Assembly: GCA_036229005.1 (NCBI GenBank)
Contig: JAZAMN010000024.1
Span: 192,001 to 256,000 of the forward strand
DNA: 64,000 nt
Direction: 5' to 3'
From: Myxococcota bacterium
GTDB lineage: Bacteria > Myxococcota_A > UBA796 > CAJQPC01
Part shown: positions 7,672 to 62,044 of the stretch, one piece after another
Numbering within the stretch: position 1 is the first letter of the stretch
Layout of the letters: each line of letters begins with the position of its first letter
Position numbers and translations under genes: made by a program
Notes under the pieces: generated by a model
Told to the model about the DNA's origin: nothing
The model's input: the letters and a program-made list of their open reading frames with translations, nothing else
Database searches by the model: none

Positions 7672-8727
7672 ATGACCTTCCTTTTGATGATTGCCTGCTC
7701 TGGGGCCCCCGAGCCCGAGACCCCCGTTGAACCCGCAGAGGCCGAGCCGCAGGTCGACCCGCTGGCCAAGGAGCTGCTGCCCAAGGCCCAGGGCTCCTTC
7801 AAGGCGCTGCCCGAGCGCATGGACGGCGAGACCCCCGCGACCCAGGCGCAGATCGACCTGGGGCGGCAGCTCTACTACGACGCCCGACTGTCCAAGAACC
7901 AGGACGTGAGCTGCAACAGCTGCCACCAGCTTGACGGCTACGGCGTCGACGGTGAGCCCACCAGCCCTGGCCACAAGGGCCAGCGCGGCGACCGCAACTC
8001 GCCCACCAGCTTCAACGCGGCCGTGCACATCGCTCAGTTCTGGGACGGGCGCGCGGCGACGGTGGAAGAGCAGGCCAAGGGCCCCGTGCTCAACCCCGTC
8101 GAGATGGCCATGCCGGACGAGGCCTCCGTGGTCGCGGTGCTCAAGAGCATCCCCGAGTACGAGACCGCGTTCAAGGCCGCCTTCCCCGACGCGGAAGACC
8201 CCATCACCTACGACAACATGGCCGCTGCCATCGGCGCCTTCGAGCGGGGACTGGTGACCCCGGCGCCCATCGATGCCTACCTGGGCGGGGACCTGGCCGC
8301 GCTGAGCACCGAGGAGCTCAAGGGCATGCAGACCTTCCTGGAGGTGGGCTGCCAGACCTGCCACATGGGCGTGGCCATCGGCGGCACCCAGTACCGGAAG
8401 CTCGGCGAGCGCGTGCCCTTCGAGACCGAGGACAAGGGCCTGGGCGCGCTCAAGGGCGACCCCAACCAGGACTTCATGTTCAAGGTGCCCAGCCTGCGGA
8501 ACATCGAGAAGACCGGCCCGTACTTCCACGACGGCAGCGTCGCGACCTTGAGCGAGGCGGTCACCCTGATGGGCAAGCACCAGCTTGACGTGGAGCTCAG
8601 CGAGCAGCAGGTCAGCGAAATCACGACCTTCCTGGGCGCACTCACCGGCTCCGTGGACGCCGAGTACTGCAAGCAGCCCGAGGCCTTCGCCAGCGGCGAG
8701 AAGACCCCGGCGCCCGACCCGAGCTGA
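7672..8727 (+). CDS. Di-heme cytochrome c peroxidase (CcpA/MauG family), lipoprotein
   Basis: [63 protein letters not shown]-terminus MTFLLMIAC. Confidence 0.93.
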
Positions 8728-8750
8728 TCCTGCAGAAGGCTCAGCATCCA

Positions 8751-8784
8751 GCGCCGCGCTCGGGAGACCGGGGGCGGCGTTTTT
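8751..8784 (+). terminator. Rho-independent terminator of the peroxidase gene
   Basis: CGCCGC-GCTCGG-GAGA-CCGGGG-GCGGCG hairpin followed by TTTTT. Confidence 0.75.
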
Positions 8785-8820
8785 GCGTCCGGACGCTGGT
8801 GGCAGACCGGGCCAAGGGCG

Positions 8821-9001
8821 GTGAGTGGGCGCTTTTCTTGAGCTAGGGCCCGTGAGTGCGCGCTTTTCTTGAGCTACGGCCCGTGAGTGCGCGCTCAGCG
8901 ACCGACAGGCGCGCACTGAGCCCCCGTAGCTCCGCGAAAGCGCGCACTGAGCCCCCGTAGCTCCGCCAGAGCGCGCACCGAGCCCCCGTAGCTCCCCCAA
9001 A
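8821..9001. repeat. Two head-to-head arrays of 31-bp tandem repeats forming an imperfect palindrome
   Basis: Left arm about 2.5x GTGAGTGCGCGCTTTTCTTGAGCTACGGCCC; right arm 3x GCGCGCACTGAGCCCCCGTAGCTCCGCGAAA-like; the arms share AGTGCGCGC and GAGCTACGG in inverted orientation. Confidence 0.9.
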
Positions 9002-9008
9002 GCGGCCC

Positions 9009-20044: not shown

Positions 20045-20914
20045 TCAGCGGACCTGGACCGCGTGCGGCGTTCCATTGGTCCCAAGCATGAAGTCCTCGC
20101 TGATCTCCAGATCGGGCCCCAGCTCACCTTGTCCGAACACGGTGAGCGTGCTCCCGGACCAGGTGGCCAGCTCCGCCCGGCCGTCGCCGTCCAGGTCCAC
20201 GCCGATGGCAGTCACCGCGCCTTGCACGCGCCCCTCCCACCAGGGACTGGCGGGGTCCACCAAGGCGCCATCGACCACGCGGTAGATCCGCACGTCGCTC
20301 CCGGCGAGCTGGACGATGTCGTCCCAGCCGTCGCCGTTCATGTCCGCGGCGCTGAACTCGCCCACGTCCCCCAGGGCGGTCTCCGTGGCGATCTTGTCGT
20401 CCAGGGAGAAGGTCGCGACCTTGAGGGGGTAGACGATGAACTTGCCGCCGCCGGTGTTGAACAGGCCGATGTCGTCCTTGCCGTCGCCGTCGAAGTCGCC
20501 GACCACGACGGGCCGCTTCTTGGAGACGTTGGCGTCGGGGGTGAACGCGGGCTCGCTGTCCCAGACCCCCGCGCCGTCGTTCATGTAGACGCTGGTCTTG
20601 TCGCCGCCGTCGGGCATCTGCCAGAGGTCGTCGTGGCCGTCGCCGTCAAAGTCGCCGAAGGCCGTCCACAGGCTGCCCCCGCCCAGCTCCTCCTGGGCAG
20701 GCTCCGCGTCCAGCTCCACCGCGCCGTCCCAGGTCAGGTGCGCCACGAAGCGCCTGCCGTCGTGGAACACGATGTCCTCGCCGCCCACGCGCTCCACGGA
20801 TTCGCCGGTGTCCTGGGTGTCCGCGGTGTCGTCGCCCCCGCCCGAGGTGCTGTCGTCCACCTCCCCGTCCTTGCAGGAGGTCAGCGCGGCGATCAGCAGG
20901 GCAGAGGTCAGCAT
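20045..20914 (-). CDS. FG-GAP/VCBS repeat lipoprotein
   Basis: MLTSALLIAALTSC; repeats GDFDGDGHDD, GDFDGDGKDD, ADMNGDGWDD, DLDGDGRAE; AAGGAG upstream. Confidence 0.82.
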   Translation of the reverse strand: MLTSALLIAALTSCKDGEVDDSTSGGGDDTADTQDTGESVERVGGEDIVFHDGRRFVAHLTWDGAVELDAEPAQEELGGGSLWTAFGDFDGDGHDDLWQMPDGGDKTSVYMNDGAGVWDSEPAFTPDANVSKKRPVVVGDFDGDGKDDIGLFNTGGGKFIVYPLKVATFSLDDKIATETALGDVGEFSAADMNGDGWDDIVQLAGSDVRIYRVVDGALVDPASPWWEGRVQGAVTAIGVDLDGDGRAELATWSGSTLTVFGQGELGPDLEISEDFMLGTNGTPHAVQVR

Positions 20915-21598: not shown

Positions 21599-22825
21599 AT
21601 GCGTCACACACTTCTGCTCACCACCCTGGCTCTGTCTGCGCTCACCGCCTGCAAGGACAGCGGCAACGGCGAGGACACCGCGGGCACAAGCACCGTGGGC
21701 ATCTGGACCCTGGGCAGCACGCCCTGCACCGGCAGCCGCGTGGACGCGCTCGAGTGCGACGACGCCGACACCTGCTATGTGGGCTGCGGGCAGAACGCCG
21801 AGGGCGTGGGACTCTTCCTGAGCAGCGACGCCGGCGGGAGCTGGGACGCCCCGGACGACGAGGCCGGCGGCTACTTCGCCACCATGCGCGTCAACCACCT
21901 CTCCCGCGGGGACGACGGCCTGCTCTACGTCGCCGGAGAGGGCAGCAGCAGCTACCGCGTGGTCTCCCTGGACACCGACAGCGGCGCCCTGGGCGCGGTC
22001 TACACCAACGGCAGCACGGTGGACTACTCCTTCACCGCGGGCTCCTTCGCGACCACCGGCGACACCATGGTGGCCGAGTCGCTGACCGGCACCGGCATCG
22101 TGGTCAAGCACCCCGGTGACAGCGCCTGGCTGGCCGAGTGGGAGGCCAACGACGGCTGGGCCGCTGGCTACGGCTGGTGGAACAACTCCGGCGAGTCGGG
22201 CCACGTGCAGGTGCTGGACATGGGCGTGGTCTCCGGCGAGATCGTCGGCGCCGGCTCCACCATCAACTACCCCCCCGTGGTCTACCTGCCGCCCCAGTCC
22301 TGGGACTTCGGCAGCAGCAGCGGCGGCGACTACGCCGACCAGATGTGGGAGACCGTCGTCCTGAACGAGGGCGCCTTCTCCCAGTACATCGGCGAGTGCT
22401 GGGGCATCGACGGCAACAGCGACGGCCTGGCCGTGGCCTGCGTGGACCAGGACGCCGACCGCGCCATGGTCTACACCATCGGCAGCGACTGGAAGACCAG
22501 CGCCTACGACGCCAGCAACTGGACCGAGAGCGACCTGAGCACCGTGCTCAGCGCCTCGCTGGTGCAGGACCACAGCACCTGGACCCGCCAGGTCTGCCGC
22601 GGTCCCGACAACCTGGTCGTCGCCGTGGGCGCGGACACCCAGGACGACACCGGCTGGATGGCCACCTCGACCGACGGCGGGAGCACCTGGACCGACCACA
22701 CCGACGACATCGTCGAGGCCTACGGGGACAGCTTCTCCGCCCTCTTCCAGTGCCAGGTGGTGGACGACCACATCGTCGCCGCCGGCGCCGGGGTGATGAT
22801 CCAGGTGGCGGTCGCGGACCTCTGA
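21599..22825 (+). CDS. Lipoprotein with Asp-box/BNR (beta-propeller) repeats
   Basis: MRHTLLLTTLALSALTAC; SSDAGGSW and STDGGSTW Asp-boxes; AAGGAGG upstream. Confidence 0.78.
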   Translation: MRHTLLLTTLALSALTACKDSGNGEDTAGTSTVGIWTLGSTPCTGSRVDALECDDADTCYVGCGQNAEGVGLFLSSDAGGSWDAPDDEAGGYFATMRVNHLSRGDDGLLYVAGEGSSSYRVVSLDTDSGALGAVYTNGSTVDYSFTAGSFATTGDTMVAESLTGTGIVVKHPGDSAWLAEWEANDGWAAGYGWWNNSGESGHVQVLDMGVVSGEIVGAGSTINYPPVVYLPPQSWDFGSSSGGDYADQMWETVVLNEGAFSQYIGECWGIDGNSDGLAVACVDQDADRAMVYTIGSDWKTSAYDASNWTESDLSTVLSASLVQDHSTWTRQVCRGPDNLVVAVGADTQDDTGWMATSTDGGSTWTDHTDDIVEAYGDSFSALFQCQVVDDHIVAAGAGVMIQVAVADL

Positions 22826-22876: not shown

Positions 22877-24883
22877 TCAGAGCTCCATCCACCAGAGCTG
22901 GTCGGTCCCGAAGCCGACCAGCTCCGGCTCCCCGTCCAGGTCAATGTCCGCCAGCCGGCCCGCGCTCAGCCTGTCCTCGCTGGTGCCGACCAGTAGCGTG
23001 GCGTCCGAGCGGGACAGGTCGGTGTAGGTGAGGGTGGTTGTCAGCGGAAGCGGCAGCACCCAGTTCTCTCCCTGCCCGAGCCCGGCGCCGGAGAGCGAGA
23101 GCCGGTCGTCCTGGAGCGCCAGGGGGTCGCCGCTGTTGTCGGTGGGCGCGTAGATCCGCACCAGAGAGCGGTAGTCCCAGTCCGGCGTGTTGCCCCCCAG
23201 GGCGATGACCGCCGCGTGGTCCGCCTCGCTGCGGCCGTAGACCAGGTCCGGGTAGCCGTCGCCGTCCAGGTCCCCCTTGGCCAGGGCAGGCACGGCCGCG
23301 TAGCAATGCGCGCGCGAGAAGCGGGTGATGTCGTCGTCGGCGTCGATGCTGCCGGTGAAGGGCCCCTCCAGCAGGGAGACCCGGTACCCCACGTCCGTGC
23401 AGCCGCTGTTGTACCAGGCGTACTCCTGATGAACCAGCGCCATCTCGACCTGCCCGTCCCCATCGTAGTCGGCCAGCTTCATCCCGCGGCCGTCGATCCC
23501 CACCCGGTCGCCGTCGCCGTCCACCCAGTTCAGGGTCGCCAGCTCCGTGTCCGTGAGGGGGTCGAAGAGGGTTGAGCCCCAGAGCAGCACACTGCCCTCC
23601 ACCTCCTCCAGACCCTGGTCCACGAACGCCCAGTCACTCCACCCCCCCGGCGAGGACAGGCTGCTGCTGCCGGACCCGTCGTACAGCCGCAGCCCCTCGT
23701 CTTCGTGGCCCAGCAGCCAGACCGTGCCGCTGTCGCGCTCGATGGGCAGGACCAGCGTGGCCTTCTCGGGGAAGCTCAGCGCCTCCCAGCTACCGTCCAG
23801 GGGGAGCGCCCCGCGCCAGACCACCCAGTCGTCGTCGCGCCAGGCCGCCGAGTCGCTGCCCACCCAGAGCGCGCCGATCCCCGGGGTCTCGGTGTGTGCG
23901 TCCGCGTTCTGGTGCAGCTCTGGTCCGTCCACCCAGACGTACACCGGGTAGTGCCGGCTGAGCACGGCGCCGGCCGCGTCCTTGAACACCACCTTGAAGC
24001 TGTAGGCGCCCGCCTCGCTCACGCTCAGGGTGGGGCAGGCCGCGCTGTTGCTCTCCAGGGTCAGCTCGGGGACGCCGGACTCCTGGACCCAGCGCACGCT
24101 GTCGGCGGCCTCGAAGCCCTCGAAGCCCCGGGCGCTGAGCTGGTAGCTGCCCACCTGGGCGTAGTCGTCGGGAGCGAGCACCGGCGCGCTCACCTGCACC
24201 CGGGCGATGGCCTTGTCTCCCGCGCTGTTCTCGAAGCGCACCGCGTAGATCCCCGGCAGGTCCGCGACGAAGCTGCTCCCGCTGGCTGTGCTGCCCTCGG
24301 GGGCCTCGATGAGCTTCTCGGTCTCGGCGTTCGAGGCTGAGAATGTCAGAGTGTCGCCGAGCATCGCAGGGGGCAGATCCGCCGCCTCAACCCGGGGCGT
24401 TTCGCTGTCCGTGCGGATGACGAGGAAGTCCTTCGCGCTGTCGCTGCCGCTGCTCACTGTGAGCCTCACCACCGCGGACTCGAGGCCCTCGGGCGGGGTG
24501 AAGGACGCCGTGGTCCCAGCGAGGTCAACGGTCTGCTCGCCGCTGTCTGTCTGCATCGTCACGCGCCACGCGGCGCTCAGGGTGCCTGGGCCGGTGGAGG
24601 CGCTGGCGTCCAGGGAGACCGCGCCGCCGCTCCAGAGCAGGTTCGGGCCGGCGTCTGCCTTCACCAGCTCGACGGTGGGGCAGTCCCAGTCCGGGGTGGG
24701 GGTGCCCGTGTCGCCTGGGTCTCCGGTGTCAGCCGGGTCCCCGGTGTCGTCCGCAGTGCCGCTGTCCGCCGTGTCCGAGCGCTCGCCCGAGTCCCCGCTG
24801 CCCTCTCCCGCTCGCGCATCAACGGGGACCCGGTAGGTGCGGCAGCCCAGGGTCGCGACAGACAGCAGCAGCCAGAAGCCCAC
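22877..24883 (-). CDS. Lipoprotein with a DTG-rich linker, PKD/REJ-like domains and FG-GAP repeats
   Basis: MGFWLLLSVATLGC after GGAGG; KADAGP...VSLDASAS (PKD-like); ADYDGDG, GDLDGDGYPD, ADIDLDG. Confidence 0.72.
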   Translation of the reverse strand: MGFWLLLSVATLGCRTYRVPVDARAGEGSGDSGERSDTADSGTADDTGDPADTGDPGDTGTPTPDWDCPTVELVKADAGPNLLWSGGAVSLDASASTGPGTLSAAWRVTMQTDSGEQTVDLAGTTASFTPPEGLESAVVRLTVSSGSDSAKDFLVIRTDSETPRVEAADLPPAMLGDTLTFSASNAETEKLIEAPEGSTASGSSFVADLPGIYAVRFENSAGDKAIARVQVSAPVLAPDDYAQVGSYQLSARGFEGFEAADSVRWVQESGVPELTLESNSAACPTLSVSEAGAYSFKVVFKDAAGAVLSRHYPVYVWVDGPELHQNADAHTETPGIGALWVGSDSAAWRDDDWVVWRGALPLDGSWEALSFPEKATLVLPIERDSGTVWLLGHEDEGLRLYDGSGSSSLSSPGGWSDWAFVDQGLEEVEGSVLLWGSTLFDPLTDTELATLNWVDGDGDRVGIDGRGMKLADYDGDGQVEMALVHQEYAWYNSGCTDVGYRVSLLEGPFTGSIDADDDITRFSRAHCYAAVPALAKGDLDGDGYPDLVYGRSEADHAAVIALGGNTPDWDYRSLVRIYAPTDNSGDPLALQDDRLSLSGAGLGQGENWVLPLPLTTTLTYTDLSRSDATLLVGTSEDRLSAGRLADIDLDGEPELVGFGTDQLWWMEL

Positions 24884-26204: not shown

Positions 26205-27814
26205 CAGTAGCTCAGGAACTCGGGGTCACGGAGGAGGGCGGAGAGCGTGCCTTGCCAGGCGATCTGGGGGTCGCCGCTGATGTGCTCCAGGTCCAGCCAG
26301 AGCTGCCCGAGCTCGGCCACGTCCTGGTCGCTGGGGCGCACGGCCCGCGTCTGCCACATCAGGCGGGCCAGCGCGGCGTCGAAGCCAGCGTCTCCGGGGC
26401 GCTCGCTGAGCGTGGTCCCCTCCAGCAGGCCGCCCGCCTCGAAGGGGGTGCCGTGGAGCACCAGGTAGCCGGCGGCGCCCTCGGCCAGGCGCTGGGCGAC
26501 CAGGGTGGTGGTCATGCTGGGGGACTGGAGGGAGGTCGTCGTGAACTGCCCGTCGATGCCCCCAGCCAGGGTCCTGTAGCCCCAGGTGTCGTTGTCCATC
26601 TGGTTGAACCCGGTGTCTGTCCACAGGAAGCCGGTGAGCTCCGACACCGCGGTCTCGAGCTGCCCGGGGGAGAGCTGCCGCCGCACCGACTCGCGGCTGC
26701 GCATGTGTTCGGTGGCGGCCTCACCGAAGGCGCCCACCTGGTACTCGGGGGTCTCGGTGATGGCCGCGAGCACGGCCAGCATGTGCCCCTTCTCGTCGCG
26801 GTAGACCTGCTGGAGCTCCTCCAGGCGGGCGGCGTCCAGCTCGGGATCCACGCTGCGCCGCAGGGTCAGCTCGGTCATGGACTGCACCGCGCACTTGCCG
26901 AAGCGGGGGTCGGCCGCGATGGTATGGCCCAGCTCCTCCAGGCCGGAGACGGGCTGGCCGTACCAGGCGGGCTCGACCTCCAGGAAGCCGCGGCCCAGGA
27001 CCTCGCGCTCCGGGTGGTAGGTCCCCAGCTCAAAGGCGCTGTCCTGCACCGAGATCCAGAAGCCGAACAGGGTCGCCCCCAGCGGGTCCAGGGTCGCGTG
27101 GCAGGTGATGCAGGTGGGCACGGTCTTGACCGCCTGCTCCAGGGCCTCTTCGTCGCTGAGGGGGGGCAGGTTGTCGAAGTCCACGACCCGGGCGCTGTAG
27201 TCGTCGCAGACCAGCAGGCGGGTCAGCGCGTTGCTGCGCGTGCGCGAGTAGGAGTTCAGGGTGGTCTGGTAGCGCCACCACAGCCCGTTGCTGGAGAGCA
27301 CGCCCGCCATGGGCCGCTGGTCGGTGTAGGTGGTCTTCTGCCAGCCGGTCTGGCCCTCTTCCCAGGCCACCGGCCAGATCTCGGCCAGGGTCTCGTTGGC
27401 GAAGCTGTAGTCGGCCGTGACCACCTCGGACCAGGGGCGGTCCTGGGCGACCACGTGGGCCAGCAGGCGCATGGGCTCCTCACCCACGGAGGCCTCGAAG
27501 GGGTGCTCCTTGCTGGGGTCGTCCGCCCACTGCTCGAACTCCGTGTGGAAGATGTAGTAGCTCTCGATGCGCGTGTGCCACCGCTCGGTGAACAGGCGCA
27601 CCAGGCGCTCTTCGAGCAGGGGATCGTGCAGGTACTGGTCGCGCAGGACCAGGAGCTGCTCCGGGTCCTCTTCGACGGCGTCCAGCTCCTGGACCGAGGG
27701 CAGGGTGCCGCGCAGGTCCAGGGACATGCGCCGGAGCAGGCGGGGAGCATCCAAGGGGACGAGCGCAGGCTCCTCCGCGTGGTTGCAGGCGAGGGTCAGC
27801 CACAGGGCGATCAC
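26204..27814 (-). CDS. DUF1549/DUF1585/DUF1588-like lipoprotein with a CxxCH heme-binding motif
   Basis: MIALWLTLAC; RLLRRMSLDLRGTLPS, AGVLS, CITCHATLDPLG, L..PEF; GTGA overlap with the upstream gene. Confidence 0.75.
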   Translation of the reverse strand: MIALWLTLACNHAEEPALVPLDAPRLLRRMSLDLRGTLPSVQELDAVEEDPEQLLVLRDQYLHDPLLEERLVRLFTERWHTRIESYYIFHTEFEQWADDPSKEHPFEASVGEEPMRLLAHVVAQDRPWSEVVTADYSFANETLAEIWPVAWEEGQTGWQKTTYTDQRPMAGVLSSNGLWWRYQTTLNSYSRTRSNALTRLLVCDDYSARVVDFDNLPPLSDEEALEQAVKTVPTCITCHATLDPLGATLFGFWISVQDSAFELGTYHPEREVLGRGFLEVEPAWYGQPVSGLEELGHTIAADPRFGKCAVQSMTELTLRRSVDPELDAARLEELQQVYRDEKGHMLAVLAAITETPEYQVGAFGEAATEHMRSRESVRRQLSPGQLETAVSELTGFLWTDTGFNQMDNDTWGYRTLAGGIDGQFTTTSLQSPSMTTTLVAQRLAEGAAGYLVLHGTPFEAGGLLEGTTLSERPGDAGFDAALARLMWQTRAVRPSDQDVAELGQLWLDLEHISGDPQIAWQGTLSALLRDPEFLSY

Positions 27815-28596
27815 TGAAGGCTCCCTTGGATCCAGGCGTCGATGGGTGTGTCGAGGTCCACGCAGCCCTGCCCCACGGCGTTCCCGGCCTGGAAGACCCA
27901 CGCGGAGCAGCCGGCCGGTCCCAGGATGGCGCGGTACCAGCCGTGGTCGGAGCGCACGGCGACGCCCCCAGAGACGATCTTGCGCTCGTTGGTGGACCAG
28001 CCCAGGTTGTCAAAGGCCATGGAGCCCTCGGCGCTGGTGACGGAGCCGTTGAGGTAGAGCACGGGGCCGACCTCGGGGTCCTCGGTGAACCACTCCGCCC
28101 AAAGCGCCATGCTCTTGCGCCCCTCTTCCCAGGGGGGGACCCCCTCGTACCCGAAGGTGCCGAGCAGGTGCATGAAGACGAAGCCCTCCCCGCCGAGCAG
28201 GATGGACTCACCGCCACACCAGAAGGTGCGCCCGTCAGGGTCGATGACGTAGGCGTCGCAGAGGAACTCGAAGCCCCCGACCTCTTCGTCGAACTTGAGC
28301 GCGGTCATCCCGCTGAAGTAGTACCCGGTGTCCGCTTGGCAGCCGAAGGGCGCGTCCAGCATGGAGTAGTCCACGCGCTCGGGGCAGGCCTCGGTGCTCC
28401 CCAGGTCCACCAGCTCCACCCAGGTCTCCACGATGGGGAGGGCCATCGGGATGCCGCCGTCCAGGATGGCCTGGGTGTGGGCCGCGGCGGTCTCGCCGTC
28501 CCACTGGGATGGGGTCGCCTCGTAGGGCGGTGCGGTGTCCTGGATCGCCGTGGACGCAGGCTCGGAGCCGGTGCAGGCGAGGGTGAGCAGAAGCAT
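27811..28596 (-). CDS. Hypothetical Cys-containing lipoprotein
   Basis: MLLLTLAC N-terminus; first gene of a coupled operon. Confidence 0.7.
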   Translation of the reverse strand: MLLLTLACTGSEPASTAIQDTAPPYEATPSQWDGETAAAHTQAILDGGIPMALPIVETWVELVDLGSTEACPERVDYSMLDAPFGCQADTGYYFSGMTALKFDEEVGGFEFLCDAYVIDPDGRTFWCGGESILLGGEGFVFMHLLGTFGYEGVPPWEEGRKSMALWAEWFTEDPEVGPVLYLNGSVTSAEGSMAFDNLGWSTNERKIVSGGVAVRSDHGWYRAILGPAGCSAWVFQAGNAVGQGCVDLDTPIDAWIQGSLQ

Positions 28597-41840: not shown

Positions 41841-42389
41841 TTATTCCGGCGGGGCGATGTCGCCGTTGGAGGCGCTGGCCCAGCTCTGGGGGGCCGGGCG
41901 GAGCAGCACGCTGTCCTGGCCGCGGTGGCGCTGGAAGCCCTGGCCCTGCTCGCCGCCGGAGGGGCCGAAGGTCAGGTCCCAGAGCAGCTCGACCCGCAGG
42001 CCGTCATCGGTGGGGGTGGGCTCGGAGAGGACCTCGAGCCAGCCCATCTCGAGCTCGGAGGGCTGGGGCTGCTGCCCGTCGGCGCTGGGGTCGTGCTCGG
42101 CCAGGCCGTCCAGGTCGCGGATGGTGGCGCCGTCGATCAGCGCGTCGCTGTGGAAGACCACCTTGGCGCTGGGGGCCAGGCGCGCGACGAAGCGGTCGTA
42201 GACGGCGTCTTTGGGATCCCCGGGGGCCAGGTGCAGGGTGATGTAGCCGACGTCGTCCCAGGTGGCGCCGGAGCTGCCGATGTCGGCGCCGCAGCGCTCG
42301 GCCATCATCCAGTGGCCCCTGCCCTCCACGTAGTAGGCGGACTCGCCGCAGTTGGAGGCGCAGGCGGTGAGCAGGGTCAGGAGCAACAT
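41841..42389 (-). CDS. Hypothetical lipoprotein
   Basis: MLLLTLLTAC; TATATT 7 nt upstream. Confidence 0.68.
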   Translation of the reverse strand: MLLLTLLTACASNCGESAYYVEGRGHWMMAERCGADIGSSGATWDDVGYITLHLAPGDPKDAVYDRFVARLAPSAKVVFHSDALIDGATIRDLDGLAEHDPSADGQQPQPSELEMGWLEVLSEPTPTDDGLRVELLWDLTFGPSGGEQGQGFQRHRGQDSVLLRPAPQSWASASNGDIAPPE

Positions 42390-42445: not shown

Positions 42446-43714
42446 TTGCTTTCGATCTGGCTGTCCCTGCTCGCCTGTTCGGGCCCCGATTCGCCCAAGC
42501 GCTGGCTGCGCTTCGAGCCCTTTGGCCTGCCGGGGGAGGCGGGCCTGGAGGAGGGCCTGATCCCCTCGCGCTACTGCGGGGACGGCGGCTTCATGAGCCC
42601 TGGGGACCGGCTGTGGACGGCGGAGGGCGAGGAGCTCCCCCTGCAGGAGGAGACCCCCAAGAACGGGGTGACCGGGGAGACCGGGCCGGTGAGCTGCGTG
42701 GGGGATCGGCGCTTCACCGCGGCCCCGGACCGCATGGGCGCCTACGTCTCGGAGGCCGGGGGGCCCTGGGAGCTGCTGCCGCTGCCGGCGGAGGACGTGA
42801 CCGCGTCCAGCCTGGTCTCGGACAGCGAGGGGGTGCTGTGGCGCACGCTCTACGCCCACAACGACGCCCGGCCGGTCACCGTGGAGCGCTCCGACGACGG
42901 CGGCGTGAGCTGGGAGGGCACGGCCATCGCGCCGGTGAACGCGGAGGGCAGCGCCGAGGACGCGCGGCTCTACCACGCCGAGGGCTTCCTGGAGATGTCG
43001 GTGTTCGAGCTGAGCGCGGAGCGGAACGGGCGCATGCGGGTGAAGGCGGACGGCAGCGAGAGCGTCCTGGGCATCAACGGGAGCATCGACTGGGACACCA
43101 CCGTGCCGCTGCCGCTGCGGGTGCTGGACGGCGAGAGCCTGAGCTGGGGCAGCGTGAACCCGCCGGAGGGCAGCCCCACCTGGCACCTGCCGACGATGTA
43201 CGTGGGCGGGGAGCCCTGGGATGCGGAGCACGAGGGGCTGGAGCCCGTCCTGCTGATCGGTCCCCAACTCTTTGGGCATGGCAACGGCGGGGCCACTCTG
43301 GAGCGGCTGATCGTCGACGACGAGGACCACCTGATCCTGCCCTCGCCGATCGGGCTGCTGCGCAGCACGACCCCCTGGACGGAGGACCTGCGGGACGAGG
43401 TGCTGCTGGACCGGAGCTGCGCGCTGCTGGAGACGCACCAGGAGGGCCTGGGGCACGCGGACGGGCCGCAGAGCGTGGAGGTCGAGAACCAGAGCGGGGG
43501 GCCGGTGATGCTGGCGACCTTCGCGGGGAACACGACCATGAACTGGGTGGGCGAGCAGGTGCTCGGGGACGACGGCGCGTACCGGCCGGGCACCCTGGAG
43601 GACGGGGAGACGTGGACCGTGGAGGCGGGTGGTCAGTACATCGTTGTCCTCGACGATGGGTTCCGGTGTCTGCAGGTGGTGGAGGGCGACCCGGGCCAGG
43701 TGGTGATCCAGTGA
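42446..43714 (+). CDS. Hypothetical lipoprotein with an Asp-box motif
   Basis: TTG start after GGAG gives MLSIWLSLLAC; SDDGGVSW (ORF track start 42407). Confidence 0.65.
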   Translation: MLSIWLSLLACSGPDSPKRWLRFEPFGLPGEAGLEEGLIPSRYCGDGGFMSPGDRLWTAEGEELPLQEETPKNGVTGETGPVSCVGDRRFTAAPDRMGAYVSEAGGPWELLPLPAEDVTASSLVSDSEGVLWRTLYAHNDARPVTVERSDDGGVSWEGTAIAPVNAEGSAEDARLYHAEGFLEMSVFELSAERNGRMRVKADGSESVLGINGSIDWDTTVPLPLRVLDGESLSWGSVNPPEGSPTWHLPTMYVGGEPWDAEHEGLEPVLLIGPQLFGHGNGGATLERLIVDDEDHLILPSPIGLLRSTTPWTEDLRDEVLLDRSCALLETHQEGLGHADGPQSVEVENQSGGPVMLATFAGNTTMNWVGEQVLGDDGAYRPGTLEDGETWTVEAGGQYIVVLDDGFRCLQVVEGDPGQVVIQ

Positions 43715-44076: not shown

Positions 44077-47000
44077 GTGCTGTTTTTGATGTTGGCCTGT
44101 CAGACCGACGCCGAGCCCCCTGTCATCGAGTCCGTCGCCCAGACGGGCAGCCGCTACCTGCCCGGGCTCAAGTGCCAGGCGCAGGTGGTGCGGACGGACG
44201 CGGACATCCCGCACATCTACGCGCAGGATCGGGAAGACCTGGCGCGGGTGATGGGCTTCGTGGCCGCGCAGGACCGCTACTTCGAGATCGACCTGGCCCG
44301 CCGGCTGGGGCTGGGGACGGTCTCGGAGCTGCTGGGCAACGACGCGCTGGAGACGGACATGGAGTCGCGCTCCAGCGGGATGACCCACGTGGCGGACCTG
44401 ATCGTGGCGAACCTGACGCCCGAGCAGGAGCTGATCTTTGATGCCTACGCGGAGGGGATCAACGCCTACATCCTGGCGGTCTCGGACGGGAGCATCGCGC
44501 CGCCCTCGGAGCTGGAGCTGGCCGGGCCGCTGCTGGGGGCCGAGAGCCCAACGGACCTGATGAAGCCCTTCGACCGCCGCGAGGTGGCCGGCGTGGCCGC
44601 GACCATCGTCTACAACCTGGGCTACGAGACGGGAGACGTGGGGCGCGCGGCGACCGAGGCTGCGCTGCCCAACATCTACGCGGGGGCAGCCCTCGAAGAC
44701 CTGCGCCAGGCGGGCGTCTACGAGGACATCTGGAGGCCGGTCGCGCCGCCCAAGCTGACCTCGTCGTCCGAGGGGGGCTGGGGGGGAGCCAAGGGGCCTC
44801 CGGGGCCGACGGCGGTGTCTACGGCGATGCGGGTGGAGCCCGCGATGCTGCAGCGGGCCATCGACAAGAGCGACGCGCTGCAGGATCGCCTGGGCCACGA
44901 CTGGAACATGGGCTTCGGGTCCAACGCCTGGGCGGTCTCCGGTGACGCGAGCACGGACGGACGCAGCCTGCTGGCGGGGGACGGGCACCTGGGCCTGGAG
45001 GTCCCGGGGCTGTTCTGGCAGGTGGGCCTGGACACGGAGCTGCTGGGCGGCGGGGACACGCACCAGCTCGGCCTCACCATCCCGGGCATGCCCTTCATGG
45101 CGGTGGGGACCAACGGGCAGGTGGCCTGGTCGCAGACGCAGCTCATGGGCGACATCACCGACTGGTACGTCGAGGAGCTGGAGCTGGATGCGAGCGGGGC
45201 GCCCTCGGCCACCCTGTTCCAGGGGAGCTGGGAGCCGGTGCAGGGCTTCGAGGAGTCCTTCGAGATCGCCGACATCCCCGTGCTGGGCAGCGAGGGCCGC
45301 AGCGAGAGTTGGGTGCGCTACACGACCTTTGACGGGCGCTGGATCGCCGAGGTGGAGGGCGTGGCCGTGTCCTCGGACCACACCCCGGAGGCCGGGCAGA
45401 CCGTGCTGATGCTGGGCGGGGACTTTGTGGTGCCCCAGGACATCGACGGGGACGGCAAGATCACGGCGCTGAGCTTTGACTACGCGGGCTTTGACGACGC
45501 GAACATCTTCCAGGCGCTGGACGGCTTCGGGCACTCGGCCGACGTGGACGACTTCCGCGAGGCCTCCCGGGGGCTGGTGGCCTACAGCCAGAACTTCACG
45601 GTGTCCGACAACAGCGGGTCGATCTACTACACCGGCTACCAGGCGGTGCCCTGCCGCGAGTACCTGGAGCGGGACAGCGACGGGAACTGGACGGCCGGCT
45701 CCAACCCCAGCCAGCTCCTGGACGGCACGCGCTACGGCGGCTTCACCATCCCGACCGAGGACGGCTGGGTGGTCGAGGGGGACAGCGACCCCTACCGCTG
45801 CGTGGTGCCGCTGGACGTGTACCCGCAGTCCAAGGACCCGGCCCAGGGCTACGTGCTGACGGCCAACAACGACCCCGGGAACATCTCGACGGACGACTCG
45901 TTGAGCAACGACCCCTGGTACATCGGCGGCCCCTGGATCGAGGGCTACCGCGCCGACCGCATCGACCGGGAGCTCTCGCGCATGGTGGCCGAGGACGCCG
46001 CGGACGTGGCGGGCATGCAGGCGCTGCAGGGGGACGTGGAGTCGGCGATGGGCGCGGCCTTCGGGCACGTGCTGCTGGAGGCGATCGAAGAGGCCCGTGC
46101 GCTCTACGCGATCGACACCGAGTACGCCCCGCACGAGGAGCGGCTGGTGGCCCTCTACGCCCAGGACATCGAGCGCATCGAGCAGTCCTACACGCTGCTG
46201 GAGGCCTGGGCCGAGGCCGGCCACCCGGCGCTGTCCGGGGTGGAGACCTTCTACCACCAGCCGATGGAGGGGGAGGCCGAGCTGGCCGCGGCGACCACCA
46301 TCCACAACGCGTGGTTCGCCTACTTCCAGGGCAAGGCGCTGGACGACGAGGGGCTGCCCGATGTCTGGGAGCCCACCGGTGGGACCGGCAAGACGCGCGC
46401 GCTGACCAAGATGGTCGACGGCCGGGGACCCGACAACCCGCTGGGCCTGGCGGCCTGGAACCCGGAGACCGGCGAGTCCGCCTTCTGGGACATCCTGGGC
46501 ACCGAGGAGATCGAGCGCAGCGAGGAGATCGCTCTGTTGGCCCTGCTGGACGCCTTCGCCTGGCTGGAGTCCGAGCCGGAGGAGCGGGAGCGCGGCGGCT
46601 ACGGCAGCCCGGACCCGGCGGACTGGATCTGGGGCCTCAAGCACGTGGTGCGCTTCGACTCCATCCTGGCCAGCTTCCTGGGCGACGACTTCGGCTTCTT
46701 GACCGAGCCCTTCTCGATCACCACCGACACGCTCCCGCTCGCCCAGAACCTGGACAAGGACGACCCCCGCGCGGACCTGATCGGCTTCCCGCGGCCGGGC
46801 GACACCTTCGCGGTGGACGCCGCCAACAACGGCTTCTCCACGGACAACTTCGACTACGGCTCCGGCCCGGTGTTCCGCATGGTCATCGCGCTCGGGCCTG
46901 ACTCGGTCGAGGTGCACAACATCCTGCCCGGCGGGCAGTCCGGGCTGGCCGAGGACCCCTACTTTGCCGACCAGGCGGCGCTCTGGCTGGGCAACGAGGC

Positions 47001-48013: not shown

Positions 48014-49588
48014 ATGCTGCTGCTGCTCTGGATGGGCCTGGCGTGTGGGACGCGGGCTGCGGACTCGGGCGGGGGGCCCAGTGATGACACCCAGGACTCC
48101 GGGCTGAGCGGGGACACGGGCTGGGTGGAGACCGCCCTGGAGGACTCGTCGCTGGTGGGGGTCGGCGCCAAGGGGCCCTACGCCAAGGACGCGATCATCC
48201 GCGTCTTCAAGGTGGACGACCAGGGGGCGCTGACCACCGTGCGCCAGTTCGGCCGCACCAACAAGGACGGACGCCTGCTGCTGCCCCCGCTGCTGTTCGA
48301 CGGCTGGTGCGATGTGTCGGTGGAGGGCGCGGCCTTCGATGAGCTGGTCGGCGACGTGGACAAAGAGCAGGGCTGGGACCTGGGGGTGCTCGCTCAGGTC
48401 GACCGCTCCGACGGCCACAGCCGCATCGTCGCGAACGTGAACCTGCTGACCCACCTGCAGCGAGCGCGGGCGCGGACCCTGCTGCAGGCGAGCCCCGGGG
48501 ACTTTGATGCCGTGATGCTCCAGTCCCACGCGGAGCTCGCGGCGATCTGGCCCATCGCCCACGCGCCCTCACTGCTGAGCGTCACCGACAGCGGAGGAGA
48601 TGGTCTGAGCGCGGACAATGCGGTGCTGCTGTCGCTGTCCGTGGCCACGCTGCGGGCCGGCTTCGGACAGGCGGAGATCGATCTGCTCGCCGCGGACTTT
48701 GCCGACGATGGGCAGATCAACGGCGAGGCGGCGGGGCTGCTGGCGGCGCTGCGGGAGGCCACCCGGGAGACCGACTATGCGCTGGCGCGCGAGCACCTGT
48801 TGGACCGCTACGGGTCGGCGCCCCCCGCGCTCCCGGTGGAGACGCTGCGTTGGACCTACGGTGCCTGCTCCGGAGACGGCGAGCGAGAGGCGATCTGCCT
48901 GGGGACCAACAGCGACCTGCAGACCCGAATCGCCGCAAAGAGCTGGGGGGAGTTCAGCTTCCGTGCGCCGCACTCGGGGAGCTTCCTGGTCGTGGGCGCC
49001 TTCGGGAGCTTCAACAACTTCCACCGGTGGACGATGGTGGACGACAGCGGCGGCTTCGTGGCGACCGGGGTGTCCACCAGCAGCCACAGCGCGGTCACGG
49101 TGGGGCTGACCCCGGGCGACTGGACGGTGCTCAGCGCCTACAACGCCGGGGACAGCGAGACCTTCGTGGACCTGAGCCTGCACAGCGCGAGCGTCGGCAC
49201 CGCGGAGCACCCCGCGCCGCTGCTTGTGGGGGTGGCCCATGAAGGGAGTGTGGCCCTGGCGAACGCGGGCGGGGGTGGGGGGACCCGGAGCTACTACGTC
49301 GTGGACAGCTCGCAGCTCGCGCACGATGCGACGCTGAGGGTCACGGTCTCTGACGTGGCCAGCGATCTTCGGCTCACCGCCTACGCGGGGGACCACGGGA
49401 CCAACCCGCTGGAGGTCATCGGCGACAGCGAGGCCATGCTGGGCCTGGACGCCGGGACGGGCGGGGTGAGCTTGTCCGGGCTGGCCGTCGACCAGCGCGT
49501 CTACCTGGTCGTCGAGGCGCTGGACGGGGGCTTCGATCCCACGTCCAGCGTGCCTGGGCTGGTCGCCTACCGCATCAAGGCGGAGTGA
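48014..49588 (+). CDS. Hypothetical lipoprotein
   Basis: MLLLLWMGLAC; DSG/DTG linker; G...KGPY..A.I.V, NVNLLTHL, DFADDG; C-terminal beta-rich domains; GGAGG upstream. Confidence 0.72.
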   Translation: MLLLLWMGLACGTRAADSGGGPSDDTQDSGLSGDTGWVETALEDSSLVGVGAKGPYAKDAIIRVFKVDDQGALTTVRQFGRTNKDGRLLLPPLLFDGWCDVSVEGAAFDELVGDVDKEQGWDLGVLAQVDRSDGHSRIVANVNLLTHLQRARARTLLQASPGDFDAVMLQSHAELAAIWPIAHAPSLLSVTDSGGDGLSADNAVLLSLSVATLRAGFGQAEIDLLAADFADDGQINGEAAGLLAALREATRETDYALAREHLLDRYGSAPPALPVETLRWTYGACSGDGEREAICLGTNSDLQTRIAAKSWGEFSFRAPHSGSFLVVGAFGSFNNFHRWTMVDDSGGFVATGVSTSSHSAVTVGLTPGDWTVLSAYNAGDSETFVDLSLHSASVGTAEHPAPLLVGVAHEGSVALANAGGGGGTRSYYVVDSSQLAHDATLRVTVSDVASDLRLTAYAGDHGTNPLEVIGDSEAMLGLDAGTGGVSLSGLAVDQRVYLVVEALDGGFDPTSSVPGLVAYRIKAE

Positions 49589-56451: not shown

Positions 56452-56452
56452 C

Positions 56453-59400: not shown

Positions 59401-62044
59401 CCCAGGTGCGGCGGACCACCTGCAGCTCCACGGGGACGCCCGCCTGGGGAGCGCCCGCGGGATCCACCGCGACGAGATCGACGCTGGCGCTCTCTTGGGC
59501 CTTGGCCACCCCTGTGGTGGCCCGGAGGCCCAGGTAGAAGGCGGCCGGGTGCACCCGGACGTGGGCGCGGTTGGCGACCCGCTGGCGCGCGGGATCCTGC
59601 ACCTGCACCTCGATCTCCACCTGCTGGGGCCGGCTGCTCTCGCCAGCGGCGGGGAGCTCCAGCGAGATGTCCAGCTTCCCCTTTGCGTCCAGGGTGTCCT
59701 CGCCTGAGGCCAGCTCCTGCACAGGTTGGTGCTCATACTCCCACCAGGCGGCGGACTCGTCGCCGCCGAAGCGGTAGGCCTCCCAGCCGGGGATCTCCGG
59801 GGTCACCTCAACAGAGCGCACGGTCCAGGTGGCCTGCTGACCGCCCATGGCTGCGCCGAAGAGGTAGTTGCCGCTGCCCGTGGCCTGCAGGGTCTGCCCC
59901 ATGACCAGGTCCTCCGGGGCGCTGACCTGCACGCGGAAGCTGGGGGCCCGGTACTCCTGGGTCTGGACGGGCAGCCAGGTCACGGCCTTCTGGCCCTCGG
60001 CGCTCACCCGGAGCTCGCAGCTTCCGGTGCCGGTGGGCATGTCCGCGGGCAGCGCGAGGTCGAAGGCCACGCCTCCGTGTGCGTCCAGGGAGACCGTCTC
60101 CTTCTTGAGCTCGGCGCCGCGGGGGTCCTCGCAGAGGATCTCCATGCTGCCCTGGGGCAGGGCCATGCCGGTCGCGATGGTGCTGCGCGCCTTGCCCGCG
60201 ACGTGCACGGTGTCGCCGGGCTTGTAGACGCCCCGGTCGGAGAACGCGGACACCCGCAGGTGCCCGGGCTGGGTCAGCTCGCCCCGGTAGATGTCGAAGT
60301 CCCAGGTGCCCCGATGGTGCGGGTCATCCGAGCTGGTGACCAGCTTGTCTCCGTCCTTCTCCACGACCAGGAACACCGGCTCCTTCCAGGACTCCCAGCC
60401 CTCAGGCAGCAGATCCGGGCTGCTGGCCACCCCGTCCGCGTCGGTCACGCCCTCCCAGCGCAGCACGCCGCCGCGGTAGGCCCGCACCTGCGCGCCCTCC
60501 ACCGGCTGACCGTCCGAGAGGCGGGTCACCCACGCCTTGACCCCGTCGTGCCCCAGCTTGAGGGTGGTGCCCAGGTCCGAGACCTGCAGCAGGGCCTTGT
60601 GGTAGCGCTGCTCTCCGCGCCAGTTGGTGTCCTGTGGGCTCCAGGTCTCCACGAACACAAAGCCCCGCGCGTCGCGCAGGTAGGGGGCCAGATCCACCTG
60701 GTCCACGTGGATCCGGTCGTCCAGCTCCCGCTGGGTCACCAGAGGCAGCGGCGCCGTGTCGAAGCTGCGCCCGCTGGAGCTGAAGGCCTCCCACTCGTCC
60801 AGGTTGTTGATCACCCAGGCGCTGTCCACCGGGGTCACCGCCACGTAGAGCTGCTCGGCGTTCCGGGTGCGCACCGGCAGCGTGCTGGGGTTGGTGGCCG
60901 GGTAGAGCTGCTTGCCGCTGGCGGCGTCCACCAGGGTGTCGTGGTGCCCCGTGGTGAAGGTCCAGGACAGCGCCTTGTCGTAGGTCTGGCCGTAGCTGTC
61001 GGTGGCCCCGGGCTCCAGGGTCACCGTGTACGTGGTCATGGGCTCCAGCCGCACGCCGTGGGACCAGCCGCGCCACTCGAAGTCCTCGGCCGGCTCGAAG
61101 GGCTCGGGGGGCGCCGGCTCGATGCGGATGCGCCCGTTGAGCTGCTCGGCCGGGGTGCGCGTGGCCAGCTCCAGGCGGATGCGGGTGTAGGGATCCACCT
61201 GGTCCCCGGTGGGGAAGAACTCCTGGACCTGCGGGGGCGGCACCGTCGCGAAGTCGATCAGCCGCTGGGTGTCGCTCCCGCGGCTGCCCTGGGTCCCCCG
61301 GATCCCCGCGTCCAGCACCAGCCGGTAGTCGGTGTCCAGCGCGAGCTCGGAGCGCAGGACCACCACGCGCTCCCGATCCTTGGGGAGTCGGATCGCGTCG
61401 AACTCCGGGTCCAGGCTGCCCAGGCTGAGCGCCCCATGGCCCGGCAGGCTGGCCCGCTCCAGCACCGACTGCGGGTCCACCGGCTGGTTGAACACGAGCA
61501 CGATGTCCTCGCTGGGGTCGGCGCTGTCGGAGCCGTCCGAGGGCCAGGATCTCAAGAGGGTGGGCCGCTGGGTGGAGAAGCCGAACACCAGCTCCTTCTC
61601 CAGGGCAGTCCCGTCCGCGGCGGAGGTCCCCTTGGGGACGCGGCACTGGATCTCCGAGGCCATCGGGAAGCGCCCCGGCTCCGGCGTGAACACCGCCGTC
61701 TGCGTACCGGCCCAGCGCCCCGTGCCGGCCATCTCGCCGCAGCTCAAGGGCACTGGATCCTGGTCCAGGCGGGCCAGGGGGACCATGGGGCGATCAAAGA
61801 CCACCACGGCCTGACGCGGCTGCTCCTGCTCCCCCAAGGGGCCGACCATCAGCACCTGCAGGCCATCCCCCAGGTCCTGGTCCCAAGCCGCCAGATCCCC
61901 GGGGCCCACCGGGGCGATCTCCGGGAGCTGCGCCGCGCTCCCGACCGGCAGCACCGTGGCCTGGGACTGGGTCGCCGGATGGTCGGGCAGCTCGGGATCT
62001 TGTGCGCTGGGCTTACAGGCCAGCAGGAGCAGTGCGGTCAGCAT
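56453..62044 (-). CDS. Bacterial alpha-2-macroglobulin family lipoprotein
   Basis: MLTALLLLAC; Ig-like repeats, DRGVYKPGD, PDK.TYEPGE, AVDHGVL, LPDNLTTFR, LPRFLR.GD, thioester YPHHCLEQ, DPLPAGLE, EQMY.PEVFGR. Confidence 0.93.
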   Translation of the reverse strand: MLTALLLLACKPSAQDPELPDHPATQSQATVLPVGSAAQLPEIAPVGPGDLAAWDQDLGDGLQVLMVGPLGEQEQPRQAVVVFDRPMVPLARLDQDPVPLSCGEMAGTGRWAGTQTAVFTPEPGRFPMASEIQCRVPKGTSAADGTALEKELVFGFSTQRPTLLRSWPSDGSDSADPSEDIVLVFNQPVDPQSVLERASLPGHGALSLGSLDPEFDAIRLPKDRERVVVLRSELALDTDYRLVLDAGIRGTQGSRGSDTQRLIDFATVPPPQVQEFFPTGDQVDPYTRIRLELATRTPAEQLNGRIRIEPAPPEPFEPAEDFEWRGWSHGVRLEPMTTYTVTLEPGATDSYGQTYDKALSWTFTTGHHDTLVDAASGKQLYPATNPSTLPVRTRNAEQLYVAVTPVDSAWVINNLDEWEAFSSSGRSFDTAPLPLVTQRELDDRIHVDQVDLAPYLRDARGFVFVETWSPQDTNWRGEQRYHKALLQVSDLGTTLKLGHDGVKAWVTRLSDGQPVEGAQVRAYRGGVLRWEGVTDADGVASSPDLLPEGWESWKEPVFLVVEKDGDKLVTSSDDPHHRGTWDFDIYRGELTQPGHLRVSAFSDRGVYKPGDTVHVAGKARSTIATGMALPQGSMEILCEDPRGAELKKETVSLDAHGGVAFDLALPADMPTGTGSCELRVSAEGQKAVTWLPVQTQEYRAPSFRVQVSAPEDLVMGQTLQATGSGNYLFGAAMGGQQATWTVRSVEVTPEIPGWEAYRFGGDESAAWWEYEHQPVQELASGEDTLDAKGKLDISLELPAAGESSRPQQVEIEVQVQDPARQRVANRAHVRVHPAAFYLGLRATTGVAKAQESASVDLVAVDPAGAPQAGVPVELQVVRRTWDVVREKGMDGRWTWTSNPVDTPVESLTAKSGKQAERVSFVPPQGGYYVVKASAKDAQGRATASELGMYVAGPGASWARGDDDQVELVPDKRTYEPGETAQILVKAPKEGLMAWVTLEREGVLEQRVVKLATQAETLSVPITAEHAPNLFVSVVLTEGAPPSDSPDAGMPAHYLGYTELAVSAADRELSVDLGTDKQTYQPGEQVTVTLKAQAGEAPAAQARVVLYAVDHGVLSLTDYQTPAPFREFWGPRQLHVLTADTRTRVLDRGALLAKGAPAGGDGGSAALRSRFQTTPLWEAELETGADGTLVHSFTLPDNLTTFRVMAVVDSGAEHFGSAEQELQVSRPLLANPALPRFLRSGDAAIAGVVVHNNRDQDREVVVNASATGLELQGSPKTVTVPAHGSLEVPFGLDQAQLGDASLEFSVSAGDDQDAVRVSLPVARPRPVETMATAGASSERQVQPFALPEGVQPGVGGLSIKASPTALVGSEDSLDYLLDYPHHCLEQTSTRLMASVLAQELDPQLELAWDSAQIQEIREGELSRLGRFRHPSGGYTMWPGASEPSALATAHALEAQHRAGQEVDAEAVAFLRDFLDGAYTPYWWSEQTKRDAHARVALTLARIGHGDPGVNSALFAERQQLSLSARAGLAESIARTTGADPRTLRLVTELQGHLDIQAASATVASDPGSRALALWEGDAAPTAALVRALLVADPENPLLPRLVQGLVGGRRLARWGNTYTTLLSLQALADYAAYAEHEGLARSVRIALDKQSLAEFEFQSAQPQVLELPLESLSSGDLIIEPQGMVYWEARLSYGLEQAPPRDEGFTLRRQMVVLEGSGSTGAVTPGSLVQVTLTISTPVERSFVAVVDPLPAGLEPVNTAFATTASAMDAGGQDSWSMWDTGPAAERTWSDWVFNHRELRDQGVMLYADWMPAGVHTYTYMARATTPGTYSHPAATVEQMYAPEVFGRTGSDQFVVGTPAVATR

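Follow-up and report, generated by a model that had tools for sequence, protein, structure and literature searches.

How a protein could be exported behind an uncharged N-terminal stub of only 7-12 residues is the question raised by this locus. The textbook loop model requires an n-region that is basic and an h-region that spans the membrane. Signal peptides are typically 15-30 residues long (PMC12190922). In the 64,000-nucleotide window (the whole stretch of DNA analysed here), fifteen proteins begin with an uncharged sequence leading to Cys at residues 8-14. Their N-termini and coordinates agree with the initial annotation, with GTG starts at 27814, 32996, 44077 and 24883, and a TTG start at 42446.

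On the forward strand, short signals are carried by a di-haem cytochrome c peroxidase (MTFLLMIAC, Cys9, 7672..7698; gene 7672-8727, CCP_MauG, GGAG 7 nt 5' of the start), an S41 peptidase (MLLLLLSC, Cys8, 31725..31748; in-frame stop three codons upstream), a penicillin-amidase-family protein (MLFLMLAC, Cys8, 44077..44100), and three unknown proteins: MTALLLTLVAC (Cys11, 32996..33028; GGAGG 7 nt upstream), MLSIWLSLLAC (Cys11, 42446..42478; GGAG 5 nt before the TTG) and MLLLLWMGLAC (Cys11, 48014..48046; in-frame stop one codon upstream, GGAGG at 6 nt). The start at 42446 is less certain, with an alternative ATG 13 codons up, and that at 44077 is the least certain: a TTG five codons up, without a Shine-Dalgarno (SD) sequence, would give Cys13 and one Arg. 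Among the relatives listed for the peroxidase, signals mostly bear Arg or Lys. On the reverse strand are a DUF1592/1585/1549-like CxxCH protein (MIALWLTLAC, Cys10, 27785..27814; GGAG 6 nt upstream), a GH92 glycosidase (MLLSLLAC, Cys8, 41808..41831; stop in frame), a bacterial alpha-2-macroglobulin (A2M; MLTALLLLAC, Cys10, 62015..62044; gene 56453-62044, SD 6-7 nt upstream), and the unknown proteins MLLLTLAC (Cys8, 28573..28596), MNWLLLLAC (Cys9, 37016..37042; 625 aa, in-frame stop three codons upstream) and MLLLTLLTAC (Cys10, 42360..42389). Slightly longer uncharged signals on the same strand belong to an Ig-like-domain protein (Cys13, 3279..3317; GGAGG at 7 nt), an FG-GAP repeat protein (Cys14, 20873..20914; AGGAG at 7 nt) and an FG-GAP/PKD-like protein (Cys14, 24842..24883; GGAGG at 5 nt; Cys16 if a GTG two codons up is used). 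Domain assignments are from Pfam, the matches of the last protein being weak. The window also holds, in contrast, an ordinary basic lipoprotein signal with Cys18 (21599..21652, forward strand). The constraints first noticed on these starts are present: seven have no in-frame ATG, GTG or TTG upstream before a stop (7672, 28596, 31725, 37042, 41831, 42389 and 48014), two are GTGA-coupled (27814 and 32996), one lies 9 nt after the preceding stop (41831), and a -10-like TANNNT lies 6 nt (31725 and 37042) or 7 nt (28596 and 42389) upstream of four.

Across the genome of this uncultured, myxobacterium-like organism, 538 of 5231 genes begin at their called starts with a stub that is Leu-rich, uncharged and followed by Cys at 8-13, compared with 153 ordinary basic signals. 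Around one gene in ten thus starts with an uncharged signal of 7-12 residues, about half the textbook length. The class had been described as window-wide; it is indeed present there (11 classified members, 5.4 expected per 64 kb), but is not limited to the window, being spread over 67 of 74 contigs. Chance does not produce it at this frequency, as the short pattern follows a random internal Met in 2/4226 proteins, and the reversed pattern gives 0 matches against 56 for the true one. Among 734 candidates, 483 have Cys at 8-12. Lys or Arg occurs in 6/384 signals with Cys at 9-14 and in 99/132 with Cys at 15-24; the search restricted residues -6 to -2 only. In the basic class at least 11 residues follow the last Lys/Arg in 146/153 signals, which is enough to span the membrane; the 7-12 residues before Cys in the short class are, as had been proposed, too few for a bilayer-spanning helix. 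Short stubs are more hydrophobic (mean KD 2.63 vs 2.18), and Leu makes up 51% of the seven residues before Cys, a value partly forced by the search pattern. No twin-arginine (Tat) motif is found in the stubs, which contain no Arg; a Tat-like motif does occur elsewhere, in 43 other proteins.

The short signals are heritable as a class: best-hit pairs with the congener G057 comprise 16 short-short and 4 basic-basic pairs, with no short-basic swaps. A2M orthologs from three families have an uncharged Cys9-10 signal, and A2M orthologs keep the Cys with either short or basic signals. A Gly, Ala or Ser before the Cys was a selection criterion, but is independently conserved in the A2M orthologs and the 16 congener pairs. 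The gene caller is hexamer-based and blind to lipoboxes; it agreed on the start at 12 of the 15 window genes, differing at 32996, 44077 and 24883. For the 734 candidates, GC3 is 0.85-0.93 from nine codons before Cys and 0.63-0.70 from 11 codons before, and ATG peaks (14-18%) at -7 to -9 relative to Cys.

As first suggested, the cargo is extracytoplasmic in type. The short class includes 31 of 84 CxxCH proteins, in a genome with cytochrome c assembly genes, and 532/538 members have no TM helix. The acidic bias of the short class (0.108) is close to that of the basic class (0.116), with other proteins at 0.029. The trait is not lipoprotein-specific. A rough regular expression (control 12/4226) gives about 219 uncharged SPase I-type signals of 10-17 residues, and 126 basic ones of 15-32 residues. 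These share an AxA-type end with canonical Sec/SPase I signals and likewise serve periplasmic or outer-membrane proteins, but differ from them in length and charge. The BamA start, for example, directly follows an in-frame TAG and opens a signal of 15 residues without charge, and BamD has uncharged signals in 3 among the 30 orthologs listed. Essential proteins with a Cys8-10 signal did not turn up: in BamA and BamD the uncharged signals are SPase I-type and 14-16 residues long, and LptE could not serve as an essential-lipoprotein test as PF04390 matched in 0/41 genomes. Because SPase I-type signals are also shortened and uncharged, the change points to a shared Sec step rather than to Lgt or Lsp.

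When Cys position and charge are tabulated in relatives, the trait is seen in this order only, and unevenly there. The Cys8 pattern has 0-2 matches in all 28 genomes from other orders, and the Cys10 pattern at most 17 in all 243 genomes from other classes; within the order, 18/44 genomes have fewer than 18 Cys10 matches. Literature searches, whose coverage excluded most subscription journals, found no prior description. In SecY, Ile187, a pore-ring residue (PMC2171872), is replaced by Ala, Ser or Thr in all 94 genomes of the order with a SecY-like match (Ala in G000), and is Ile in 24/24 others (hand count). Phe192 is replaced by Thr, Ser or Ala in the order. The supposition of altered machinery is borne out to the extent of this TM5 change, but not for Lgt and Lsp as the altered step. 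Channels with altered pore rings are of the prl or super-active kind (PMC3164448; PMC13537251). In the latter, the measured effects are small (log2FC +0.47 for I187M and +0.28 for F192S); the rows of its data S1 covered here include I187M and F192S/Y/L, apparently not measured with defective signals, and neither I187A nor I187S is among them. The order SecY resembles the E. coli prlA and Sec61 prl channels in having a pore-ring substitution and apparently accepting weak signals. It differs in being natural, order-wide, and located at I187 with F192, the classical prl sites I278 and I408 being unchanged. As the change has a single origin, and position 187 is one of 12 columns separating 11 order from 10 outgroup SecYs, it cannot show cause. 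Thr187 is also present in 5/243 genomes of other classes, with background pattern counts.

These are probably genuine Sec signal peptides without an n-region, handled by an ordinary Sec-Lgt-LspA pathway with relaxed proofreading. Export through Sec is very likely, and lipidation at the Cys is a likely prediction; whether the SecY TM5 change contributes is evenly balanced. SRP, or SecA, would bind the Leu-rich stub co-translationally and bring it to the single SecYEG. There, the substitutions at 187 (to Ala/Ser) and 192 might act as a mild natural prl allele, enabling weak signals to open the channel. With no cytoplasmic charge to hold it, the stub would not need to span the bilayer, and could lodge in the outer half, on the same side as the Lgt active site; Lgt catalytic residues are in the periplasmic half (PMC4728403). 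Lgt, LspA and Lnt would next act on the Cys in the ordinary way, adding lipid and cleaving, with SPase I cleaving the AxA-type short signals in parallel. The stub may perhaps keep its formyl-Met, a tentative prediction; SRP binding blocks deformylation (PMC5454389). Loss of peptide deformylase was considered and rejected, the enzyme being present in 41/41 genomes. The SecY change would be permissive rather than sufficient, lineages of the order having then shortened their signals to different extents. A further-reaching version is doubtful: an order-wide second topological class of formylated, uncharged stubs of 7-9 residues. Such a stub would at no point cross the whole membrane. After passing a SecY whose proofreading is naturally relaxed, it would receive lipid from the outer leaflet at a non-consensus Leu-Leu-Ala-Cys box, and the enzyme might be an Lgt type lacking His103 or some dedicated factor.

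Around 10% of the proteome appears to manage without either element of the loop model, which would redefine how little a signal needs for Sec export and for maturation as a lipoprotein. The short signals suggest a more permissive export channel, a natural counterpart to laboratory prl mutants that combines hundreds of natural substrates with a two-residue channel change. Such a counterpart would make the purpose of SecY proofreading and the role of the n-region directly testable. Annotation rules that insist on a basic residue, or on Cys no earlier than 15, are expected to miss or mis-start most envelope proteins of the lineage.

Hydrophobicity may compensate for signal charge in E. coli. Any bacterial Sec, Lgt and LspA might take a poly-Leu stub of 6-9 residues, its high hydrophobicity standing in for the charge, with no change of machinery, the order having drifted to minimal signals via internal Met or new leaderless starts, and the SecY change being an unrelated lineage marker. 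This is unlikely, although the higher hydrophobicity of short stubs is consistent with it, as are the TANNNT boxes 5-8 nt before the start in 11% of short-class and 0.7% of basic-class genes, the Met-rich h-regions of outgroup G023, which offer ready internal starts, and the approximately 90-fold variation in short-signal abundance among genomes sharing the SecY change. Order members with Ala or Ser at 187 and few short signals include G036 (0/3), G016 (1/4) and G014 (0/1; stretches sampled in each). Against it, the class is nearly absent outside the order even though internal Met is common there, and the pore-ring change falls at the same boundary of the order.

A dedicated route was among the initial proposals. 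Here the uncharged Leu-Leu-Ala-Cys stub would be a distinct tag read by a specialised factor, for instance one of the paralogs of Lgt or LspA or a targeting protein yet to be recognised, beside the ordinary pathway. The bimodality of the signals is sharp, and they differ at -2: Leu is found there in 375/538 short signals (70%), outside the lipobox consensus [LVI][ASTVI][GAS]C (PMC4728403). The class is conserved between congeners, and the genome has four Lgt homologs of two types and two LspA. Genus g19, with only 2-3 weak-scoring Lgt matches, has 0-2 Cys8 matches. However, sister orders with ordinary signals have both Lgt types and multi-copy Lgt (1-7 copies), G014 and G016 have five Lgt matches yet few short signals, and SPase I-type signals are equally shortened. 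An order-specific Lgt was rejected on copy number and on a quick 38-row tree from part of the homologs. An accessory Sec system (SecA2/SecY2) would explain a second signal class, but this 94% complete genome has one match each for SecA and SecY, with no second copy found. SecA aligns normally with E. coli SecA (residues 9-815), and loss of SRP was rejected, as Ffh, FtsY and SRP RNA are all present. With Lgt paralogs common to outgroups, single SecA and SecY and an intact SRP, no dedicated pathway is seen, and this part of the initial annotation is quite improbable.

The proteins could also be exported and not lipidated by Lgt, the stub being an uncleaved anchor or the Cys modified by other chemistry. 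The lipobox is outside the consensus: the end in a small residue and Cys is present, but the strict form occurs in only 3 of the 15 window proteins, and in 94/538 short-class against 90/153 basic-class signals. The equivalent of E. coli His103 is missing from all four Lgt homologs, as it is from 37 of 38 aligned Lgts of the class and from outgroup Lgts. Predicted myxobacterial lipoproteins are reported to be cut at SPase I sites in an E. coli expression host (PMC13616975). Nevertheless, equivalents of Arg143 and Arg239 are kept in Lgt; LspA, a single Lnt homolog and LolA are present; residue -1 is Ala, Gly or Ser; the charge of the mature N-termini is like that of the basic class; and among orthologs the same Cys is preceded now by a short, now by an ordinary lipoprotein signal. 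Export without lipidation by Lgt is very unlikely. The signals are like canonical Sec/SPase II ones (E. coli Lpp type) in their N-terminal hydrophobic stretch before a small residue and Cys, in their TM-free extracytoplasmic cargo, and in having canonical orthologs elsewhere; they differ in the missing basic n-region, the length and the Leu at -2.

A start-site artefact, with translation really beginning further upstream at near-cognate codons and yielding ordinary signals, is largely excluded already and extremely improbable: although the hexamer caller sometimes mis-picks an internal Met (Lnt; G023) and 40/538 genes are extendable to a basic signal with CTG/ATH, this is near the control (31 +/- 3), 213/538 have no near-cognate codon within 25 codons upstream, and 118 have an in-frame stop within six. 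Rescue by an upstream standard start, possible for 13/538, was rejected as no better than control (15.3 +/- 2.2; positive control 127/148), and 293/538 genes lack any in-frame start further up. Even in genes that do offer alternative starts, upstream GC3 is 0.59; SD and -10 spacing favour the short starts, and orthologs share the short start despite unrelated upstream sequence, one having a stop two codons up. Outgroup G023, with 30 matches, was rejected as an independent short-signal lineage: many of its matches are non-coding, and the coding ones are mostly internal Met in longer signals. Uncharged Cys14 starts are also seen in outgroup G053, and may be the same internal-Met mis-call.

All 15 N-termini that the initial annotation had claimed as uncharged lipoprotein signals (12 with Cys at residue 8-11, three at 13-14) are found in the sequence as described, and its counts on their start sites are exact. 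G000, the genome that contains this window (G000:C24:192001-256000), is 6.4 Mb in size with 70% GC, and is 94% complete. A hexamer gene caller, trained on 1722 long ORFs and calling 5379 genes in G000, agrees with 12 of these 15 starts. Pfam families in the cargo (15 scanned among 18 proteins) are cytochrome c peroxidase, S41 peptidase, GH92, penicillin amidase, alpha-2-macroglobulin (A2M), Ig-like, FG-GAP (two) and DUF1592-like; six of the 15 scanned have no Pfam family. An additional gene with a short signal (Cys9) lies at 63256-64000 (-), its start falling just past the window end. The operon at 24951-28596 (-) encodes two short-signal proteins, one of them DUF1592-like with CxxCH, plus a DUF1501 protein whose N-terminus is twin-arginine-like. 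Thus, short-signal and Tat-like cargo are co-encoded. At 54163-62044 (-), the gene directly after that for A2M probably encodes PBP1C, an order that we take to be the known yfhM-pbpC arrangement.

A lipobox-like Cys close to the start is seen in 734 of the 5231 G000 genes scoring at least 30, and in 483 of these 734 it is at residue 8-12. When these candidates are placed in register at their Cys, GC3 amounts to 0.63-0.70 at codon -11 and further upstream, and to 0.85-0.93 starting at codon -9. The ATG frequency is highest (14-18%) at codons -7 to -9, and in-frame stops are seen from about -10. Under a stricter split, there are 538 signals that are short and uncharged versus 153 basic ones. As this split imposes absence of charge, the independent test constrained only residues -6 to -2; here Lys/Arg is found in 6/384 signals with Cys at 9-14 versus 99/132 with Cys at 15-24. 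The last Lys/Arg is at least 11 residues from the Cys in 146/153 basic-class signals (mode 13). Thus, neither the membrane nor the ordinary signal geometry looks unusual, and the short class is a separate mode. A parallel SPase I-like set, from a rough regular expression, has 219 uncharged signals of 10-17 residues beside 126 basic ones (internal-Met control, 12/4226).

Typical signal peptides are described as having 15-30 residues and a basic n-region (review PMC12190922, in excerpt). Judging from sequence, the short class would work similarly to canonical Sec/SPII signals, but it fails the basic n-region, the length and the strict lipobox. With three defining features failed, it is not filed as a member of that system. 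The trait is absent from the available portions of two accounts of myxobacterial secretomes and signals (PMC11495043 and PMC13616975), and no prior description of short uncharged signals was found in the literature searched, the coverage of which excludes most subscription journals.

The short-signal trait is real, and restricted to the order of G000. A Cys8 DNA pattern has at least 10 matches in 37/123 genomes of the order (maximum 103), and 0-2 in 28/28 genomes from other orders of the class. At least 18 matches to a Cys10 pattern are found in 26/44 order, 1/14 other-order and 0/243 other-class genomes. The lone other-order genome, G023, was rejected as a carrier, its matches being internal Met in longer signals. 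Within the order, G066 and G106 are short-rich (17/28 and 12/23 with Cys at residue 12 or before) despite 0-1 Cys8 matches, and four members are not short-rich in the samples taken (G036 0/3, G016 1/4, G014 0/1 and G032 1/3). Best-hit pairs with 392 kb of the congener G057 are short-short in 16 cases, basic-basic in four and short-basic in none; 16 further pairs, mostly involving start mis-calls or paralogs, have one member outside either class.

In SecY of G000, I187 (E. coli numbering) is replaced by Ala and F192 by Thr, while I82, I86, I191, I278 and I408 are unchanged. By hand count, residue 187 is Ala, Ser or Thr in 94/94 order genomes versus Ile in 24/24 others of the class; the TM5 pattern used matched 122/151 class genomes, and four with only a non-SecY-like match were set aside. 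Column 187 is one of 12 diagnostic columns among 21 full SecYs. Thr187 is also seen in at least 5/243 other-class genomes, an under-count because the pattern caught only 23/44 order genomes. I187 is named as an isoleucine-ring member (PMC2171872, in excerpt), and prl or super-active behavior from pore-ring changes is described in parts of PMC3164448, PMC3518225 and PMC13537251. Among the rows listed from data S1 of the last, log2 values are +0.47 for I187M, +0.28 for F192S, +1.31 for F192L and +0.06 for F192Y.

The short signals probably take the ordinary Sec-Lgt-LspA-Lnt route, with the proofreading of signals relaxed. Counted against this explanation are the single evolutionary origin of the SecY change, carriers of this change with few short signals, and a lipobox off consensus in 444/538 short-class signals. 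Formyl-Met can be preserved by SRP binding (PMC5454389); speculatively, such preservation on the stub would remove its last charge. G000 has two deformylases, and peptide deformylase gives 2-3 matches in 20/20 order genomes versus one in 13/21 other-order genomes. Drift of the signals with no change in the machinery is possible, if unlikely.

The initial annotation had suggested inspecting the machinery for paralogs. These are found for Lgt (four) and LspA (two), but SecA and SecY are single, as is Lnt; Ffh, FtsY and SRP RNA are present. LepB has one strong match, plus three weaker S26 matches and a SodX-like one. A dedicated factor for the short signals is quite improbable. At 4605-6155 (-) in the window, a gene presumably marked as nickel superoxide dismutase-like by its His-Cys-Asp-x-Pro-Cys-Gly hook precedes genes for an S26-like maturation protease and, probably, a nickel transporter.

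Export of the short-class proteins themselves seems likely. They make up 31/84 CxxCH proteins of G000, a TM helix is lacking in 532/538, and in acidic bias they resemble the basic class. The heme of c-type cytochromes is attached outside the cytoplasm, and cytochrome c assembly genes are present. Of 25 A2Ms listed among 26 matches and sorted by eye, 11 (three families) start with an uncharged signal with Cys9-10. In five the lipoprotein signal is longer and basic, and the remainder are other forms or partial. Relatives of the peroxidase in other taxa (55 of 80 loci listed) have mostly basic signals, a few of them as short as Cys12-15. BamA of G000 has an uncharged 15-residue signal starting directly after an in-frame TAG; LolA, which is present, and BamD have basic signals. 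Most BamD orthologs of the class (L157-L186) have signals of SPase I type that lack a lipobox (lipobox Cys in 3/30 listed), unlike E. coli BamD, a lipoprotein. LptE (PF04390) has no match in 41/41 genomes searched, which may reflect divergence rather than loss.

Lgt is multi-copy throughout the class (1-9 copies), with both types inside and outside the order. His103 of E. coli Lgt is absent from all four G000 copies and from 37/38 aligned class sequences; the residues equivalent to Arg143 and Arg239 are retained. Export without Lgt lipidation is very doubtful. In a class-wide Lgt type lacking His103 (L314-L343), a His-Asp-His motif replaces the usual signature end. One operon (L001/L002, G000:C8:68311-71829) has a membrane-protein gene between two lspA copies, then lgt.

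A start-site artefact, in which upstream starts restore basic signals, is highly improbable, as a standard upstream start rescues 13/538 short-class genes (control 15.3 +/- 2.2; positive control 127/148). With CTG/ATH also allowed, 40/538 are rescued (control 31 +/- 3). There is no upstream in-frame ATG/GTG/TTG in 293/538, and an in-frame stop lies within six codons upstream in 118/538. A few per cent of members, but not the class, may be wrongly started, since the caller sometimes mis-picks an internal Met, as in Lnt. The GGAG spacing peak is the same in both classes. TANNNT lies 6 nt upstream of the start in 8.2% of short-class genes, 4.6% of other genes and 0% of basic-class lipoproteins in G000, probably indicating leaderless transcripts with a class bias.
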